Positions 7,764 through 57,235 of a stretch of DNA of 64,000 nucleotides are shown in pieces; position 1 is the first letter of the stretch, and every line of letters starts with the position of its first letter. Origin of the DNA: Dehalococcoidia bacterium (GTDB taxonomy: Bacteria > Chloroflexota > Dehalococcoidia > Dehalococcoidales > JAUYDJ01). The notes under the pieces are model-generated. The model searched no databases and was not told where the DNA came from. It saw only the letters and a list, made by a program, of their open reading frames with translations. The DNA lies in assembly GCA_020353235.1 (NCBI GenBank), contig CP070693.1, forward strand, positions 836,844-900,843. The letters run 5' to 3'. Both the position numbers and the translations under genes were made by a program.

Positions 7764-7814
7764 CTCTTTTATTATACCTTATATTATCAAATTTCGGAAT
7801 AATTCCAACGGCAA

Positions 7815-7843
7815 TTGAAAAATTGTGAAACTAATCATACAAT
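7815..7843 (+). promoter_or_regulatory. Candidate sigma70-type promoter for the repeat-protein gene
   Basis: TTGAAA (7815-7820), a 17-nt spacer and TACAAT (7838-7843). An AGGGGAAGGG ribosome-binding site follows before the ATG at 7861. Confidence 0.4.
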
Positions 7844-7860
7844 AGGGGAAGGGTTTGGCG

Positions 7861-9567
7861 ATGGCAGATAAGGTTGAAAAATTAGACAAGGTATCTTCCC
7901 GGATTCTTGATGATATGGAAAGCGATACCGATGTTTTCGGCAAAGCGCTCGCCAGAGCTGAGGAACTCAGCCGGTTGGCTCGCGAGGCAGCCGAGGGCTC
8001 AATAAAAGTTTCCCAGGAGGCAATCCGCCGTGCTGAGATATTGAGCCAGGTAGCCAAAGAGACGGCGGAAGAGGCGAAACAGCTGTCGCTGGAAGCAGTG
8101 CGCCGGGCGGAAGAGGTAATCAAGAGCACCCGGGCGACCGCTGAGAAGGCGACCAAGGCTTCCCAGCAAGCGGTGCAGCAGGCTGAGGAAGCTATCCAAT
8201 CGACCAAGTGGGCTACCGAGGCGTTGACTAAAGCCTTTGCTGAAGCGGCGCATAAAGCTGAGGAAACTGCCCAGTCGACCAAGCAGATGGCTGAGGAGTC
8301 GATAAAAGTATCCCAGGAAGCGATCGCCCGGACTGAGGCAATCGACCAATCGGCTAAGCAGATGGCTGAGGAGTCACTCAATATATCTCAGGAGACGATG
8401 CAGCGGGCTGACGAAGTAAGCCAGATGGCGCGCAAGATTGCTAATGAAGCCAAACGGGCATCAATCGAGGCGACCACCAGAGCGGAGAAAGCAGGTCGGG
8501 CGGCTGAGGAAACCGCCAAGTCGACAGAGCGGCTCTTTGCCAAAGCAATGACCCGGGCTGAGGAAATAAGCCGGATTGCGGAGGAGACAGCCGAGAGCTC
8601 GGTCAGGGCATCAGAGGAAGTAGTCAGCCGGGCTGACGGGATAGTCCAATCACTCCGCCAGGCTACTGCTGAGGCCAAGAAAGCCTCTGAGGAAGCCCTC
8701 AATAAGGCTGATGAGGTAGGTAAGTCGGCTTGGCAGACTATTGAGGAAGCCAAAAAGGCGGCTGAGGAAACCATCAGCAAGACTGATGAGACCAGCAAGC
8801 TGGCGGAGCAGACCGTTGCCGAATCGAAGAGGGTATCGGAGGAAGCGGTAAGTCGGGCTGACGAGATTAGCAAGTCGGCGAAAGAAGCCGTGGAGACATC
8901 AGCCAAGGCGTCGCAGGCAGCTATAACTCAGGCTGAGGGAGCCAATAAACTGGCTAAAGCGGCGGCTAAAGAAGCTGCCAAGCTATCACAGGAGGCGGCT
9001 GCGGAATCAAAGAAGGTCGCTGAGGCGGCGGTAAGCCGCTCTGAGGAAGCCGGCCGGTTGGCTCAGGAAACTGCTGCCGAGGCAAAAAAGGCGTCCCAGG
9101 AAGCCATAACCAGGTCTGAGGCAGCCGGTAAATCGGCAAAAGAAGCCGCTGAGGCATCAGCCAAGGCGTCTCAGGAGGCGATGCTGCGGGCGGAGAAGGC
9201 CAGCAAGTCAGCCAAATCGGCGGCGGAAGCATCGGCTAAATCAGCCAAGGAAGCCGCCGAGCAGGCAATAGCTGCTGCCCGAGAAGCGGCCGCAGCCTCA
9301 ATCAAGGCATTTGAGCAGGCTATCGGCGGGCCAGAAGCGGTAAGCCGGCTGACCGCAGTTGCTCAGGAGGCAGCCGGCAGACCCCAGGAAGCCGCCCCGG
9401 GTAAGGCGGCCAAAGCCAAGGAAAAGAAAGAAGAAGCAACGAAGGTAGGCCGGGATATTGAGAGCCGTTTGGAGTTTTTAGCCAGAATGTTTGCCGAAAA
9501 TAAGACCAAACGAGCCAGAAAAAGGGAAAGTGAGGAAGAGAAAGAGACTGAAGAAGAGGAAGAGTAA
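7861..9567 (+). CDS. Long Ala/Glu/Lys/Ser-rich alpha-helical repeat protein (25-residue repeats), function unknown
   Basis: The track ORF starts at a TTG (7855). The ATG at 7861 with the upstream RBS is more likely. There is no signal peptide and no TM segment. The tail is RLEFLARMF followed by basic then poly-acidic residues. Confidence 0.8.
   Translation: MADKVEKLDKVSSRILDDMESDTDVFGKALARAEELSRLAREAAEGSIKVSQEAIRRAEILSQVAKETAEEAKQLSLEAVRRAEEVIKSTRATAEKATKASQQAVQQAEEAIQSTKWATEALTKAFAEAAHKAEETAQSTKQMAEESIKVSQEAIARTEAIDQSAKQMAEESLNISQETMQRADEVSQMARKIANEAKRASIEATTRAEKAGRAAEETAKSTERLFAKAMTRAEEISRIAEETAESSVRASEEVVSRADGIVQSLRQATAEAKKASEEALNKADEVGKSAWQTIEEAKKAAEETISKTDETSKLAEQTVAESKRVSEEAVSRADEISKSAKEAVETSAKASQAAITQAEGANKLAKAAAKEAAKLSQEAAAESKKVAEAAVSRSEEAGRLAQETAAEAKKASQEAITRSEAAGKSAKEAAEASAKASQEAMLRAEKASKSAKSAAEASAKSAKEAAEQAIAAAREAAAASIKAFEQAIGGPEAVSRLTAVAQEAAGRPQEAAPGKAAKAKEKKEEATKVGRDIESRLEFLARMFAENKTKRARKRESEEEKETEEEEE
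7942..9204 (+). repeat. In-frame 75-bp (25-codon) degenerate tandem periodicity inside the repeat-protein gene
   Basis: The landmark triplet (R/K/Q)-(A/T/S)-(E/D) recurs at track residues 34, 59, 84, 109, 134, 159, 184, 209, 234, 259, 284, 309, 334 and 359. It then recurs at 395, 420 and 445. Counted by hand. Confidence 0.85.
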
Positions 9568-9594
9568 CACTGAATTACGGCAATAGGTAATTAG

Positions 9595-9641
9595 GGCACA
9601 AGTACCTTGACTTTTCACGGGGCAAACCATATACTTGTGCC
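9595..9641 (+). promoter_or_regulatory. Candidate promoter bracketed by a perfect 10-bp inverted repeat
   Basis: TTGACT (9607-9612), a 17-nt spacer and TATACT (9630-9635). The inverted repeat is GGCACAAGTA (9595-9604) and TACTTGTGCC (9632-9641). The right arm overlaps the -10. Confidence 0.4.
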
Positions 9642-9682
9642 GAAAATTCGCAAGATTTCATATTAAAGGGGGGTATTTTCTT

Positions 9683-10165
9683 ATGGTAGACCCGAAAGAG
9701 CAAGCTCAGAAGGTGGAGAAGAAAACCGAGGAGCCAGTAGTGGAACCAGCGGCTGAGGTTCAAGGAGAGGCCCTGGCTGAGGCTCAGGAACAGGCCGTGG
9801 AACCCTTGGCTGAGGTTCTGAAAAGGGTAGAACATGCCTATGCTGCTTATGTTGATGCGGAGAAAGAGGTGGCTAGGGTCTACAAGTCAAATGAGCAGCA
9901 GGTGGAGAAAGCCTACAAAGAGGCTGAGCAGCAGGCCAATATCGCTTGTGAGCAGGGCGTGGAAAGAGCCGCCCGAAATCGCGAGCGGGCGGAACAGCTG
10001 GCTGAGGAAGCGTATCACCGAGCCCGGGAACAGGCTAAGAAGAATTATGAAGAAAGTGTCAAGCGGAGCCTGGAAGCCCGTAGGGAAGCTATAGAACAGG
10101 CTTGGGTGGTTCGCACCGAATCTGTAGAACGGTCCTGGAAATTCTACTCCAAAGAGAAAAGATAA
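9683..10165 (+). CDS. Charged alpha-helical protein with hendecad-spaced aromatic residues, function unknown
   Basis: The likely start is the ATG at 9683 (MVDPKEQ), preceded by AAAGGGGGG. The track start at 9635 adds an implausible leader. The composition is Glu/Ala/Lys/Arg-rich, with no TM segment. Confidence 0.7.
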   Translation: MVDPKEQAQKVEKKTEEPVVEPAAEVQGEALAEAQEQAVEPLAEVLKRVEHAYAAYVDAEKEVARVYKSNEQQVEKAYKEAEQQANIACEQGVERAARNRERAEQLAEEAYHRAREQAKKNYEESVKRSLEARREAIEQAWVVRTESVERSWKFYSKEKR

Positions 10166-10193: not shown

Positions 10194-11369
10194 TTACAGT
10201 AGCGAGGGTATATCGCGGAAGGCGTCCTCGATTCCTCGGTGTTCGTACTCTATCCCTTCCCATCTCGTCTTATAGGAGGAGATATACCTAATAGCTCTGG
10301 TAAAGTACTCCATGACCTTACCGACGTTAGTAAGTTCAGATAGTATCAAAGTGACTTCTATGGCCCGTTTTTCCCGGGGATAATCACCACTCCTGATTAT
10401 GGCTTCTGTGGCCACACGTTTGAGGCAACCTCCGATTTCATTAAGCAGTGACATGTTCAGTTCATCGGGTGGTGCGGAGAGGAGATACAGAGCTCGCTTG
10501 GCATCTGAGGGACGGCACTTAAGCGACAGGTCACTTATGGCATCACTCATTGCCTGAACCCCCCGGCGGCTTTCAACCGGCTGCTTCCTGAAATCCGAGG
10601 TTCCACCAAAGGCAAGCTTGAGCATTGGTATCTGAGTCCTACCATGGCCAATTACCGTCCACCCCGACAGGGTCTGAATTATGTCTCCGGCGTCGATAAT
10701 CTTAGCACCGATGTATTTCGGCTTCTTCTCTTCACCGGCGCAGAGCAGGTTATAAAAGGGGCTGACCAACCGGGCATTAATCTTGGCCAGGTTATGCTGA
10801 AGCGAGGCATCTTTGGTAATATACCGCTGGTTGTCAATCAGAAAGACGGCATCAGCCACCAGGTAAGCCGATTTGAGGCAGGTGGCGGTGTTGTATATCG
10901 TTCTCTCCTCCACCTTCTCTTCATGCCTGAAGGGAAGGACAATAACGTTGTATATCGGCTTTTCTGGGTAGCGCTCTTTGAGGTTTTGGGTCAGTATCGA
11001 TATTGCTCCCGAACCGGTACCGCCGGCGGCGCTGGCAATGACTACGAAGGCATCGGTCTCGTGGAATCGCTTGGTGTTTTTAACCGCTTCGGAGACCTTA
11101 TCGCCATCTTCCCGGGCTATCTCAGCACCTAGTTCGTTTATTTTGCCGACACCGTGACCACCTGTCTTTTGAGCGCCGATAAGCACTCGATGTGCTTGGT
11201 CTGGCCTGATGAAGGATAGTCCGCTTAAATCAGCAATATCGGTGTTGACGGCAATAATGTTGCTGATTATATCAATGCCACGCTGACCGCGTGCTCTTCC
11301 GTTGAGACGAGCAAACTCATCGGCAATCCGACCACCACACTGTCCGCAACCAATAACTAGTAGCTTCAC
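10194..11369 (-). CDS. Tubulin/FtsZ-superfamily GTPase, CetZ/tubulin-like (paralog A)
   Basis: 391 aa with a GTG start. Motifs are MKLLVIGCGQCGGRIAD (T1 loop), GHGVGKINELGAEIARED, SAAGGTGSG (tubulin signature), FLIDNQRY, a T7-like IIDAGDIIQTL, SGDYPRE and LILSELTNV, ending in DIPSLL. Confidence 0.85.
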   Translation of the reverse strand: MKLLVIGCGQCGGRIADEFARLNGRARGQRGIDIISNIIAVNTDIADLSGLSFIRPDQAHRVLIGAQKTGGHGVGKINELGAEIAREDGDKVSEAVKNTKRFHETDAFVVIASAAGGTGSGAISILTQNLKERYPEKPIYNVIVLPFRHEEKVEERTIYNTATCLKSAYLVADAVFLIDNQRYITKDASLQHNLAKINARLVSPFYNLLCAGEEKKPKYIGAKIIDAGDIIQTLSGWTVIGHGRTQIPMLKLAFGGTSDFRKQPVESRRGVQAMSDAISDLSLKCRPSDAKRALYLLSAPPDELNMSLLNEIGGCLKRVATEAIIRSGDYPREKRAIEVTLILSELTNVGKVMEYFTRAIRYISSYKTRWEGIEYEHRGIEDAFRDIPSLL

Positions 11370-11402: not shown

Positions 11403-12578
11403 TTATAGCAATGTCGGGATGTCTTTGCCAACTTCTTCCAGGGTTCTAAGCCTGCCCGCGGTCTCTTCTTCTCTCCGTTTGAACTCGGGGATGAGAGTGG
11501 TTGATTTACTATAGTACTCCCTGACCTTCTCCACGTTGCTCAATCCAGACAGGATCAGGGTAACCTCGACATGGGTTCTCTCCCGTGGGTAGTCACCATT
11601 CCTGATGGTAGCTTCTGGAGCAATACCTCTCAGATAGTCGCCAAGTTCTTTAACCAGGTCCATATTCATTTCTTTATGCGGTGCCGCCAGGAGGTATAGT
11701 GCCCGGCTGGCATCCGAGCAATCGCAGGTAATGGAAAGCTCACTCATCGCTTCATCCATTGCCTGTATTCCCTTATGGATTTCGGTGCTCTTGGTCCTGA
11801 AGTCAGACTTGCGGGGCAGAGGTAGATTAAACAAGGGCACATCTGATTGACCGTGACCGATGGTGGTCCAACCGGTCAGTGTCTGATTGATATCGCCGGC
11901 ATCGACGGTTTTGGCACCAATGTATTTGGTTTTCTTCTCCTCACCGGCGCAGAGCAGGTCATAGAACGGCTCCACAATCATTTCATTAATCTTGGTGAGG
12001 TTATTTCTGAGGGAGAAGTCCTTTCTGATATACCGCTGGTTGTCAATCAGAAAGACGGCATCAGCCACCTGATTGACTGATTTAATGCAGAGCGCCGAGT
12101 TATAAATAGCTCTTTCTTCGGTTGACTCTTCATGCTCAAAGGGCAAGATAACCATGGCATATAGTGGTTTATCTACATAGCGTTCTTTGATGAATTTGGT
12201 TAAGACTGGCAGCGCCCCTGAGCCGGTGCCACCGCCCGAAGAGGCAATCAGTAAGAAGGCGTCTGATTCATAGAACCGCTTGGCTCCTCGGATGGCATCA
12301 ATAACTTTATCGCTATCATCTCTGGCTATCTCAGCGCCCAGCTCGTTTATTTTACCGACGCCATGGCCACCGGTCTTTCTGGTTCCAATCAGGATTCTAT
12401 GCCGGTAATCAGATTTTATGTTGGACAGCCCGCTCAGGTCAGCCGCATCGGTGTTTACGGCGAAGACACCGGGGGTTATTTCAATGCGGCGTTGGCTACG
12501 TGCCCTTTTATTTATCCGGGCGAATTGGTCGGCAATCCTGCCGCCACACTGTCCGAACCCAATCACCACTAATTTCAT
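11403..12578 (-). CDS. Tubulin/FtsZ-superfamily GTPase, CetZ/tubulin-like (paralog B)
   Basis: 391 aa, preceded by a strong RBS (GAGGTGGG). It is colinear with paralog A without gaps and matches at 70 of the first 100 residues by hand count. Motifs are GQCGG, SSGGGTGSG, FLIDNQRY, TVDAGDINQTL and NGDYPRE, ending in DIPTLL. Confidence 0.85.
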   Translation of the reverse strand: MKLVVIGFGQCGGRIADQFARINKRARSQRRIEITPGVFAVNTDAADLSGLSNIKSDYRHRILIGTRKTGGHGVGKINELGAEIARDDSDKVIDAIRGAKRFYESDAFLLIASSGGGTGSGALPVLTKFIKERYVDKPLYAMVILPFEHEESTEERAIYNSALCIKSVNQVADAVFLIDNQRYIRKDFSLRNNLTKINEMIVEPFYDLLCAGEEKKTKYIGAKTVDAGDINQTLTGWTTIGHGQSDVPLFNLPLPRKSDFRTKSTEIHKGIQAMDEAMSELSITCDCSDASRALYLLAAPHKEMNMDLVKELGDYLRGIAPEATIRNGDYPRERTHVEVTLILSGLSNVEKVREYYSKSTTLIPEFKRREEETAGRLRTLEEVGKDIPTLL

Positions 12579-57100: not shown

Positions 57101-57120
57101 CGGCATAATAAATGCACTGC

Positions 57121-57222
57121 CAGCTCTCCTTTCCAAACACGGGAGGCAATGCCGTTTCCAGTATTACCCTTTCGGCCAATCTCCATAGCGTTGCCTTCAG
57201 GAGAATTGGCTCGGAGAGGTAT
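57121..57222 (-). promoter_or_regulatory. Molybdenum/tungsten cofactor (Moco RNA motif) riboswitch aptamer
   Basis: The minus-strand RNA is CCUCUCCGAGCCAAUUCUCC...GGAGAUUGGCCGAAAGGGUAAUACUGGAAACGGCAUUGCCUCCCGUGUUUGGAAAGGAGAG. It has the conserved UCCGAGCC, GGCC, GCCUCCC and GGAAAGGAG blocks. P1 is closed by CUCUCC/GGAGAG. Confidence 0.75.
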
Positions 57223-57235
57223 TTAATTTAAACCC

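Follow-up and report, generated by a model that had tools for sequence, protein, structure and literature searches.

What is a long, strictly repetitive helical protein doing beside two tubulin genes in a bacterial chromosome? The question is raised by a 64,000-nucleotide stretch of DNA from a Dehalococcoidia bacterium (contig CP070693.1, positions 836,844 to 900,843; the whole stretch is called the window here), in which positions 7861-9567 of the forward strand encode a protein that we call REP, with cc176, TubB and TubA as its neighbour genes. An earlier note on this DNA had described the product as a 25-residue helical repeat that it did not recognise, had compared it with bacterial coiled-coil cytoskeletal proteins, and had pointed to the tubulin-like genes on which it converges. 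Comparison with related loci gives a partial answer. REP is inherited only together with the tubulin paralogue TubB, and almost always with cc176. By its sequence, it is the founding member of a family that carries no annotation and whose 25/7 architecture is unusual in its exactness. We lean towards a reading in which REP would be an uncharacterised accessory, a filament-associated scaffold, of a bacterial CetZ-like tubulin cytoskeleton: a homo-oligomeric coiled-coil rod that would dock via a tethered C-terminal helix.

Co-inheritance with one tubulin paralogue

The window is chromosomal DNA of Dehalococcoidales (Chloroflexota), and its best related loci are found in metagenome-assembled genomes of Dehalococcoidales. 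REP is flanked by lysS, recO, an aldehyde:ferredoxin oxidoreductase gene, recR and dnaX on one side, and by gapdh, eno, pth and ligA on the other. Three genes, cc176, TubB and TubA, lie between REP and gapdh. The convergence of REP on the tubulin-like genes, as claimed in the earlier note, stands, with the qualification that the small gene cc176 (about 9683-10165) is placed in between.

This linkage was followed in two independent scans. A tubulin-anchored genome scan covered 80 Dehalococcoidia loci, 41 of them with both flanks visible. The other scan was anchored on the C-terminal motif of REP in metagenome contigs and gave 50 REP genes for which 1.8 kb or more of sequence is available downstream. 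The conserved backbone is eno-gapdh-[...]-dnaX-recR, and the bracket occurs in two states (compare L010 with L011). TubA is present and REP absent in 19 of the 41 fully flanked loci, where the gap between gapdh and dnaX is mostly 1.35-1.7 kb; the remaining 22 carry all four genes, TubA, TubB, cc176 and REP. The second tubulin, TubB, was always accompanied by REP and cc176 in the tubulin-anchored scan. The usual order is gapdh > tubB > < cc176 < REP tubA > dnaX >, with arrowheads for direction. In the window and in L003-L005 tubA has moved beside tubB, and L072 represents a third arrangement; the sub-unit REP > cc176 > < tubB is intact in all three.

A convergent tubulin stands beside REP in 33/33 of the tubulin-anchored loci, and cc176 is likewise found in 33/33. 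In the REP-anchored loci a convergent tubulin lies within 2.5 kb in 50/50, with cc176 in between in 44/50. Absence or unlinking of REP in relatives that carry the tubulin pair, an outcome that the earlier note had considered, was thus seen in none of these 33 and 50 loci. The co-occurrence that it had proposed to examine is strict for TubB and cc176, and does not extend to the tubulin family generally, as the 19 loci with TubA only demonstrate. The trio REP > cc176 > < tubB is also found without gapdh, dnaX or tubA nearby (L119, L139, L153 and L160), which indicates that the trio travels as a unit. The features by which the Dehalococcoidia CetZ-associated module is recognised, namely this gene order, an array of 25-residue units and the C-terminal motif RL[ED]xL[AS][RK]M[YF], are all present in the window.

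The 25-residue array

The landmark [RKQ][ATS][ED] ends in REP at residues 34, 59, 84, 109, 134, 159, 184, 209, 234, 259, 284, 309, 334, 359, 395, 420 and 445; the rest of the protein lacks it. When the sequence is set out in lines of 25 letters, its alignment from residue 26 on is visible to the naked eye. The landmark positions, the exact spacing of 25, the single step of 36 and the two following steps of 25 given in the earlier note are all reproduced to the residue. A repeat hidden Markov model (HMM) was built from units 1-14, whose placement at 26-375 is therefore true by construction; the evidence for in-register spacing is provided by the landmark positions and by the autocorrelation at lag 25. 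The BLOSUM62 autocorrelation at this lag is 1.78, with 40% identity, against -0.01 ± 0.08 in shuffled sequences (z = 22). Secondary lags are found at 11, 14, 36 and 50, of which 36 is a composite lag. The HMM recovers 14 + 3 units (Table 1), in agreement with the 14 in-register copies, and about 17 in total, counted before.

A Fourier analysis of Kyte-Doolittle hydropathy over residues 26-485, a check of the kind that the earlier note had proposed, gives a single dominant peak at 3.57 residues, which equals 25/7 and represents the seventh harmonic of the 25-residue period. The peak has a power of 627; in shuffled sequences the maximum is 54 ± 11. The amphipathic stripe is coherent over about 460 residues, as the equation of 25 residues with seven helical turns (7+7+11) had predicted. 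The family consensus of the unit is S-Q-E-A-I-S-R-A-E-E-I-S-K-E-A-K-E-A-A-E-A-S-x-K-A. On a 25/7 helical wheel of 365 family units, twelve positions form an arc of about 160 degrees free of charged residues, with Ala, Ser and Gly in its centre and Ile/Val seams at positions 5, 11 and 23. Its edges are lined by Arg7 (92% basic) and Lys/Arg16 (89% basic), and the opposite face alternates Glu and Lys/Arg. This pattern is the signature of a helix burying a wide small-residue face against other helices, and a 7+7+11 pattern that runs unbroken through seventeen repeats makes REP an exceptionally clean candidate for a natural 25/7 coiled coil. No tandem repeat was found in the REP gene at the DNA level (TRF), so that the periodicity is maintained at the level of the protein.

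The same rule governs the homologues, the arrays of which comprise 8-19 recognisable units. The step between units is 25 in 348 cases, and most of the steps that do not divide by 25 follow the rule 25+11n (36, 47, 58 and 69). Since an 11-residue insertion is a whole three-turn block, the stripe stays in phase, as would be expected if its continuity were required.

Structure prediction, which had also been proposed as a check, gives an all-helical protein: the AlphaFold model (single sequence, monomer, low confidence) has helices at residues 2-245, 253-487, 491-509 and 513-567, and only its all-helical character is taken from it here. At 0.148 nm per residue, a rod of about 460 residues would measure about 68 nm if it were a single straight helix. 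The period of 3.571 lies between 3.5 of the canonical left-handed coiled coil and about 3.6 of the free helix, so that any supercoil should be weak, consistent with the long, nearly untwisted coiled coil or helical bundle envisaged in the earlier note.

The C-terminal helix

Behind the rod lies a linker, variable across the family and rich in Gly, Pro, Lys and Glu, with Pro at 491, 508 and 513 and Gly at 489, 490, 506, 514 and 530, in which the predicted local distance difference test (pLDDT) of the AlphaFold model is lowest at 504-511. The linker leads to a conserved amphipathic helix with the family motif [KR]-[IM]-E-x-R-L-[ED]-x-L-[AS]-[RK]-M-[YF]-E-x-K-K. Among 22 and 31 aligned homologues R536, L537, L540 and M543 are invariant, and Y/F544 is nearly so. 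The ending RLEFLARMF, followed by basic and then polyacidic residues, that had been noticed before is present at REP 536-568. An acidic tail occurs in most homologues, and its sequence is not conserved. The helix is read as a docking peptide and not as a membrane anchor, because an invariant Arg lies inside its apolar face and an acidic tail follows; such an Arg would fit protein docking better than membrane anchoring. The C-terminus of FtsZ consists of a linker, a conserved peptide and a variable tail, and the layout of REP as rod, linker, peptide and tail resembles it.

The REP gene and its family

From ATG to stop the frame encodes 568 amino acids and not the 570 counted before; a TTG at 7855, in frame upstream of the ATG, would extend the protein by the two missing residues, and relatives begin at the same M-A-D-K among 36 family members whose N-termini were compared. 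The upstream promoter described as good amounts to a 10/12 match to the consensus, which is only a pattern match. Against the 92%-identical orthologues in two 97%-related genomes (L003 and L004), all 568 codons align without a gap, and the ratio of non-synonymous to synonymous substitution rates (dN/dS) is 0.18-0.20, which means purifying selection. For comparison, dN/dS is 0.06-0.08 for the tubulins and 0.12-0.13 for dnaX, so that the constraint on REP is weaker than that on the tubulins and similar to that on dnaX. REP is composed of Ala (24%), Glu (17%), Lys (11%) and Ser (10%). The statement that it has essentially no Pro or Gly before its C-terminal region holds for Pro, which is absent before residue 491, and less well for Gly, of which there are eight before residue 489. 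No transmembrane segment or signal peptide is indicated, as claimed, the highest 19-residue Kyte-Doolittle mean being 0.67. The strongest purine skew of the window is found at 8001-10000 on the coding strand of REP (GC skew 0.19, AT skew 0.36), owing to the dominance of GCN, GAR and AAR codons. The same codon dominance accounts for antisense shadow open reading frames (ORFs) at 7779-8381 and 8388-8906 on the reverse strand, which likewise show the 25-residue period.

The repeat that the earlier note did not recognise is also claimed by no family in Pfam or NCBIfam, neither of which gives a match to the window REP at E <= 1. PHROGs and PADLOC, libraries of phage and defence proteins, return nothing for REP, and an exact-sequence look-up with either the ATG or the TTG start finds no record. 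A word-indexed homology search with REP gave five hits, and an exhaustive phmmer search over 1.84 billion representative proteins gave 46 weak hits, mostly fragments. The hits are few because the correction for composition bias hides most full-length relatives. Retrieval by synteny was far better than direct homology search, and the C-terminal motif alone retrieved 147 relatives on metagenome contigs.

The full-length frame is kept in more than 110 loci; the 92%-identical sister genomes apart, the homologues sampled share 31-56% identity. In the genome scan, 36 homologues have stop-to-stop ORFs of 444-915 amino acids, a few of them truncated at a contig end, and share one common plan. At the N-terminus a short, variable, acidic leader is followed by a conserved first unit, FEKAVARAExLSRAAREAA. 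A short REP-like protein of 338 amino acids (P0001, L001:1577-2593) has mostly 36-residue steps and the same C-terminal motif, RLESLAQMY. Its gene follows an HTH_17 gene and a 209-amino-acid gene on a 2.7-kb contig that ends 157 bp downstream; no tubulin is visible there, and linkage cannot be judged. Weak hits to the C-terminal helix of BORCS6 occur in ten of 31 REP homologues, and none in the window REP.

Comparison with known systems

The only full-length hits of the word-indexed search that are not REP proteins are four histidine kinases, P0002-P0005, with the architecture REC-PAS-[array]-HisKA-HATPase. Their array is a linker of about 350 residues with a best lag of 25 and a hydrophobic period of 3.58-3.59. 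The kinase consensus SQEAIARAEEEARLAREEAEAxKxA and the REP consensus SQEAISRAEEISKEAKEAAEASxKA are in register, especially over the first eleven residues (SQEAIARAEEE), and phmmer with REP matches the four kinases at E values of 6e-10 to 2e-4. The helix that enters HisKA in histidine kinases is a parallel homodimeric coiled coil. Since the same array is found in such a linker, the kinases offer the best hint that REP may be a parallel dimer. They differ from REP in that their array is embedded in a signalling protein, without the C-terminal RLExLAxMY motif and without tubulin neighbours. P0003 is encoded in a type IV pilus-like cluster (L163:5263-7815) with pilin-like N_methyl, T2SSE, T2SSF, PilM_2 and HTH_17 genes.

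With crescentin, FilP, Scy and DivIVA, REP shares a long α-helical rod whose phase departs from the heptad by stutters; like them it is cytoplasmic and encoded among cytoskeletal genes. Unlike these proteins, to which it has no detectable sequence relation, it has a near-crystalline 25-residue (7+7+11) period, carries a conserved peptide on a tether at its C-terminus, and is strictly linked to a tubulin paralogue in its gene context. FilP and Scy use a long 51-residue repeat; nothing on this repeat was found in the literature searched. Another set of comparable proteins is formed by ZapA/ZapB, EzrA, SepF, TubY of TubZRC, and microtubule-associated proteins (MAPs) such as PRC1. Like them, and as far as gene linkage suggests, REP would be a coiled coil encoded with a tubulin-superfamily polymer and combining a rod with a short docking element. 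REP has no homology to any of them, and the polymer here is CetZ-like. A TubZRC-like type III DNA partition system was considered and rejected. The intergenic regions hold no iterons or centromere-like repeats, no helix-turn-helix (HTH) or other DNA-binding domain is found in REP or cc176 by Pfam or NCBIfam and the REP locus has no DNA-binding gene, the tubulins are of CetZ and not TubZ type, and the locus is chromosomal and syntenic.

Amphipathic helices rich in Ala, Glu and Lys with an 11-residue sub-period are also known from Phasin_2, LEA_4, the apolipoproteins and apolipophorin-III. Compared with a phasin domain, REP has 5-9 times the length, and it is set apart by a 25-residue super-period, a small-residue core and a cytoskeletal gene context. 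Among solved structures in the PDB, the window REP matches only designed helical bundles, weakly. The family profile finds best the de novo designed helical bundles and repeat proteins (E 3e-12 to 1e-8), next the chemoreceptor cytoplasmic hairpin 2ch7 (E 5e-6), and weakly apolipophorin-III (E 7e-3). The designed bundles 6xr1, 4tql and 4uos, as well as 2ch7, share with REP idealised helices of Ala, Glu, Lys and Arg, and pack into bundles; they fold back through loops, whereas REP has no loops over 460 residues. The likeness is one of design principle and composition, not of ancestry. In the literature no paper was found on this family, on a 25-residue coiled-coil repeat or on partners of bacterial CetZ-like tubulins, and nothing relevant was found on a cytoskeleton of Dehalococcoidia.

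A model for REP and its alternatives

From these data we infer coiled-coil oligomerisation, C-terminal docking and a cytoskeletal role for REP. The protein would be a cytoplasmic, all-α-helical rod with one uninterrupted amphipathic stripe over about 460 residues. Such a stripe can be buried only by pairing with other helices, so that the rod most likely self-associates into a homo-oligomeric, weakly supercoiled coiled coil. A flexible linker would tether the conserved amphipathic helix (xIExRLExLA+MY) and the acidic tail, and the helix would dock on a partner within the module. TubB and cc176 are the first candidates, because they are co-inherited with REP, while TubA exists without REP in many genomes. 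The rod might then bundle CetZ-like filaments, space them, or tie them to another structure.

Several observations weigh against this model. Gene linkage shows shared function, not physical binding, and a few lineages have no cc176; five loci (L097, L106, L113, L117 and L118) represent one such lineage, in which a REP of 716 amino acids ends about 80 bp from the convergent tubB. The length of the rod varies widely among homologues, whose stop-to-stop ORFs run from about 470 to 915 amino acids, and no fixed geometry is implied. All members of the family come from uncultured genomes and metagenomes. The AlphaFold model of REP has low confidence (pLDDT 67, predicted template modelling score 0.30) and folds the rod back at 246-252, where REP has no Gly or Pro breaker. 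The best natural match of the family profile in the PDB is the antiparallel hairpin 2ch7, and a face so wide and rich in Ala could likewise be buried in an antiparallel bundle or one of several helices. Lastly, Phasin_2 (PF09361) is matched by 8/31 homologues at E <= 0.01, which bears on one of the alternatives below.

REP might instead form filaments by itself, in the manner of intermediate filaments and of crescentin, FilP or Scy, and be related to the tubulins in function without binding them directly. A long, unbroken rod of coiled-coil type with short non-helical ends and a link to cytoskeletal genes would suit such a protein, and coiled-coil genes are common beside archaeal tubulin-like genes (PMC9871819). 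We regard this as unlikely. The sequence of REP shows no kinship with Pfam Filament, with DivIVA or with other families, and no match to Filament or a related model was seen among 31 homologues. A conserved peptide tethered at the C-terminus suggests that REP docks on a partner, and it is with one tubulin paralogue that REP is strictly co-inherited. Filament formation is nevertheless compatible with the favoured scaffold. Rather less probable is an amphipathic coat on a hydrophobic or membrane surface, similar to phasins, LEA proteins or apolipoproteins, with an indirect tubulin link such as a membrane tether. The Phasin_2 matches speak for it, and three of ten homologues scanned individually exceed the Phasin_2 cut-off of 24.9 bits (44.5, 41.9 and 30.6; the three are L011:7500-9761, L012:7679-9811 and L021:6073-8256), as do the composition of REP, its 11-residue sub-period, the basic residues flanking the apolar face, an arrangement known from class A amphipathic helices, and the weak apolipophorin-III match. 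However, the window REP has no Phasin_2 hit at E <= 1, and in the homologues with 44.5 and 30.6 bits no individual stretch passes the model, the score being a sum over repeats that is typical of compositional similarity. The LEA_4 and Apolipoprotein models hit none of the 31 homologues and ApoLp-III hits one (E 0.002); the unit of REP is 25, with 11 only as a sub-period. With Ala, Ser and Gly rather than bulky residues at its centre, the apolar face is better suited to packing against other helices than to entering lipid, anionic membranes would repel the acidic tail, and the conserved eno-gapdh-tubulins-dnaX-recR neighbourhood, to which the search was confined, contains no genes for polyhydroxyalkanoate synthesis.

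Seventeen near-identical units of exact period, linked to polymer-forming GTPases, also bring to mind a ruler that matches the lattice of a tubulin protofilament with one repeat per subunit, like tropomyosin or nebulin on actin. The dimensions make this very improbable. The spacing of subunits in polymers of the FtsZ/tubulin type is about 4.0-4.4 nm, whereas a helix of 25 residues, at 0.148 nm each, is about 3.7 nm long, and the mixed steps of the homologues (25, 36, 47, 58 and 69), together with an about two-fold range of total length, are incompatible with a fixed lattice. That REP is no functional protein at all, but a low-complexity ORF or an annotation artefact, as its biased composition, strong GC and AT skew and long antisense ORFs might suggest, is hardly credible in view of a dN/dS of about 0.19 and of the conservation of the full-length frame, the N-terminal unit, the C-terminal motif and the gene order in more than 110 loci; the antisense ORFs are short shadows of the repeat. 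A scaffold associated with CetZ-like filaments is the reading of REP that we favour among these.

Neighbouring genes and other features

The features of the locus are collected in Table 1. TubA and TubB, each of 391 amino acids, share 61% identity. Among solved structures their best relative is 4b46, matched over the full length with an E value of 9e-48 and recorded in the PDB as 'cell division protein FtsZ', which we take to be Haloferax volcanii CetZ1. By these matches the window tubulins are bona fide CetZ relatives; public records name such genes 'cell division protein FtsZ'. The last residues of both are KDIP[ST]LL, which is reminiscent of the C-terminal docking peptide of FtsZ. CetZ-like sequences in Chloroflexota (Dehalococcoidia) have been mentioned only in passing (PMC9871819). 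Other tubulin-like genes were met in related loci: at L102:2-1875 the C-terminus of a REP is followed by a co-directional, distant (34%) tubulin-like ORF, and at L049:8731-9936 and L061:8731-9936 a different, tandem second tubulin, 47% identical to TubA, lies directly upstream of tubA, with neither REP nor cc176.

The probable start of cc176 is the ATG at 9683, behind a Shine-Dalgarno-like AAAGGGGGG. The protein has a disordered acidic N-terminus followed by one long helix with an 11-residue repeat. Indels in the conserved domain of its homologues are exactly 11 residues, the best lags are 11, 22 and 33, and the hydrophobic period is 3.65. AlphaFold with a 14-sequence alignment predicts a single helix at 42-159 (118 residues) with a pLDDT of about 98. 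A profile search gave 35 relatives, of which the named ones are almost all called 'hypothetical protein', Dehalococcoidia bacterium being the sole organism named; it returned no protein of Dehalococcoides mccartyi, which may be of the single-tubulin type. For btf_0548 of D. mccartyi, considered as a REP, no such identity is claimed. On a 1-kb Logan contig, a called protein of 254 amino acids (P0170) carries the first 115 residues of a CetZ-like tubulin, continued in frame by a cc176 domain; this is probably a chimera made in assembly from the convergent genes, a real fusion being the alternative.

Between the stop of REP and the start of cc176, at 9594-9641 on the forward strand, there is a perfect 10-bp inverted repeat (GGCACAAGTA ... 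TACTTGTGCC) without a U-run. The stability of this stem-loop is not significantly beyond that of shuffled sequences (z = -1.7). A promoter-like TTGACT-17-TATACT at 9607-9635 overlaps it. Elsewhere in the window, a Moco riboswitch (Rfam RF01055, 78.9 bits) lies at 57110-57228 on the reverse strand.

Table 1. Features of the REP locus (positions are those of the window; residues are those of REP)
Feature	Position	Strand	Basis
Promoter-like site TTGAAA-17-TACAAT upstream of REP	7815..7843	+	Consensus scan, 10/12 matches; pattern match only
REP coding sequence, 568 amino acids + stop	7861..9567	+	ORF list, dN/dS, orthologues in >110 loci
N-terminal leader, residues 1-25, acidic, family-variable	7861..7935	+	N-termini of 36 members compared
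Fourteen in-register 25-residue units, residues 26-375	7936..8985	+	HMM parse, landmarks, lag-25 z = 22
Inserted partial unit of 11 residues (376-386), source of the single 36-residue step	8986..9018	+	HMM parse
Three more 25-residue units, residues 387-461	9019..9243	+	Outside HMM seed, match at E 5e-7 to 7e-9
Degenerate helical rod end, residues 462-485	9244..9315	+	Weak partial unit matches; AlphaFold helix to 487
Gly/Pro/Lys-rich linker, residues 486-532, family-variable length and sequence	9316..9456	+	Composition, pLDDT, alignment
Conserved C-terminal amphipathic helix IESRLEFLARMFAENK, residues 533-548	9457..9504	+	Alignments of 22 and 31 homologues
Basic patch KTKRARKR, then acidic tail ESEEEKETEEEEE, residues 548-568	9502..9564	+	Sequence
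cc176, gene of about 160 amino acids downstream of REP	9683..10165	+	Conserved in 33/33 and 44/50 REP loci
TubB, CetZ-like tubulin paralogue, convergent with REP-cc176	10194..11369	-	Pfam Tubulin 3e-34, CetZ_C 4e-15
TubA, CetZ-like tubulin, copy also found alone in relatives	11403..12578	-	Pfam Tubulin 2e-36, CetZ_C 3e-17

Implications

Cultured Dehalococcoidia are not known to have a peptidoglycan wall; together with the need for CetZ1 in the rod shape of Haloferax, this would make a shape-related cytoskeleton plausible. CetZ1 controls cell shape in Haloferax and is required for its rod shape, according to work cited in a passage of PMC10869688. The theme of a coiled-coil accessory of a tubulin-superfamily cytoskeleton is already known, and coiled-coil genes of unknown role often neighbour archaeal tubulin-like genes (PMC9871819). 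CetZ tubulins govern cell shape in haloarchaea, and a binding partner of any of them was not found in the literature searched.

Much more tentatively, and with doubt prevailing, many uncultured Dehalococcoidia might possess a four-component cytoskeleton of archaeal style, made of two CetZ-like tubulins and two dedicated coiled-coil proteins; REP might then be the first described binding partner of CetZ, a MAP-like cross-linker or tether, and the 25/7 array a portable, nearly untwisted block that also serves as a signalling helix in histidine kinases. The module is made of two tubulins and two coiled-coil proteins that differ in their periodicity, and it is invisible to routine annotation, in which the tubulins are called 'FtsZ' and the relatives of cc176 'hypothetical protein'. 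The polymorphism between one-tubulin and four-gene loci provides a ready-made comparative experiment, and REP, always co-inherited with one CetZ paralogue, is a concrete candidate partner for CetZ-type tubulins.

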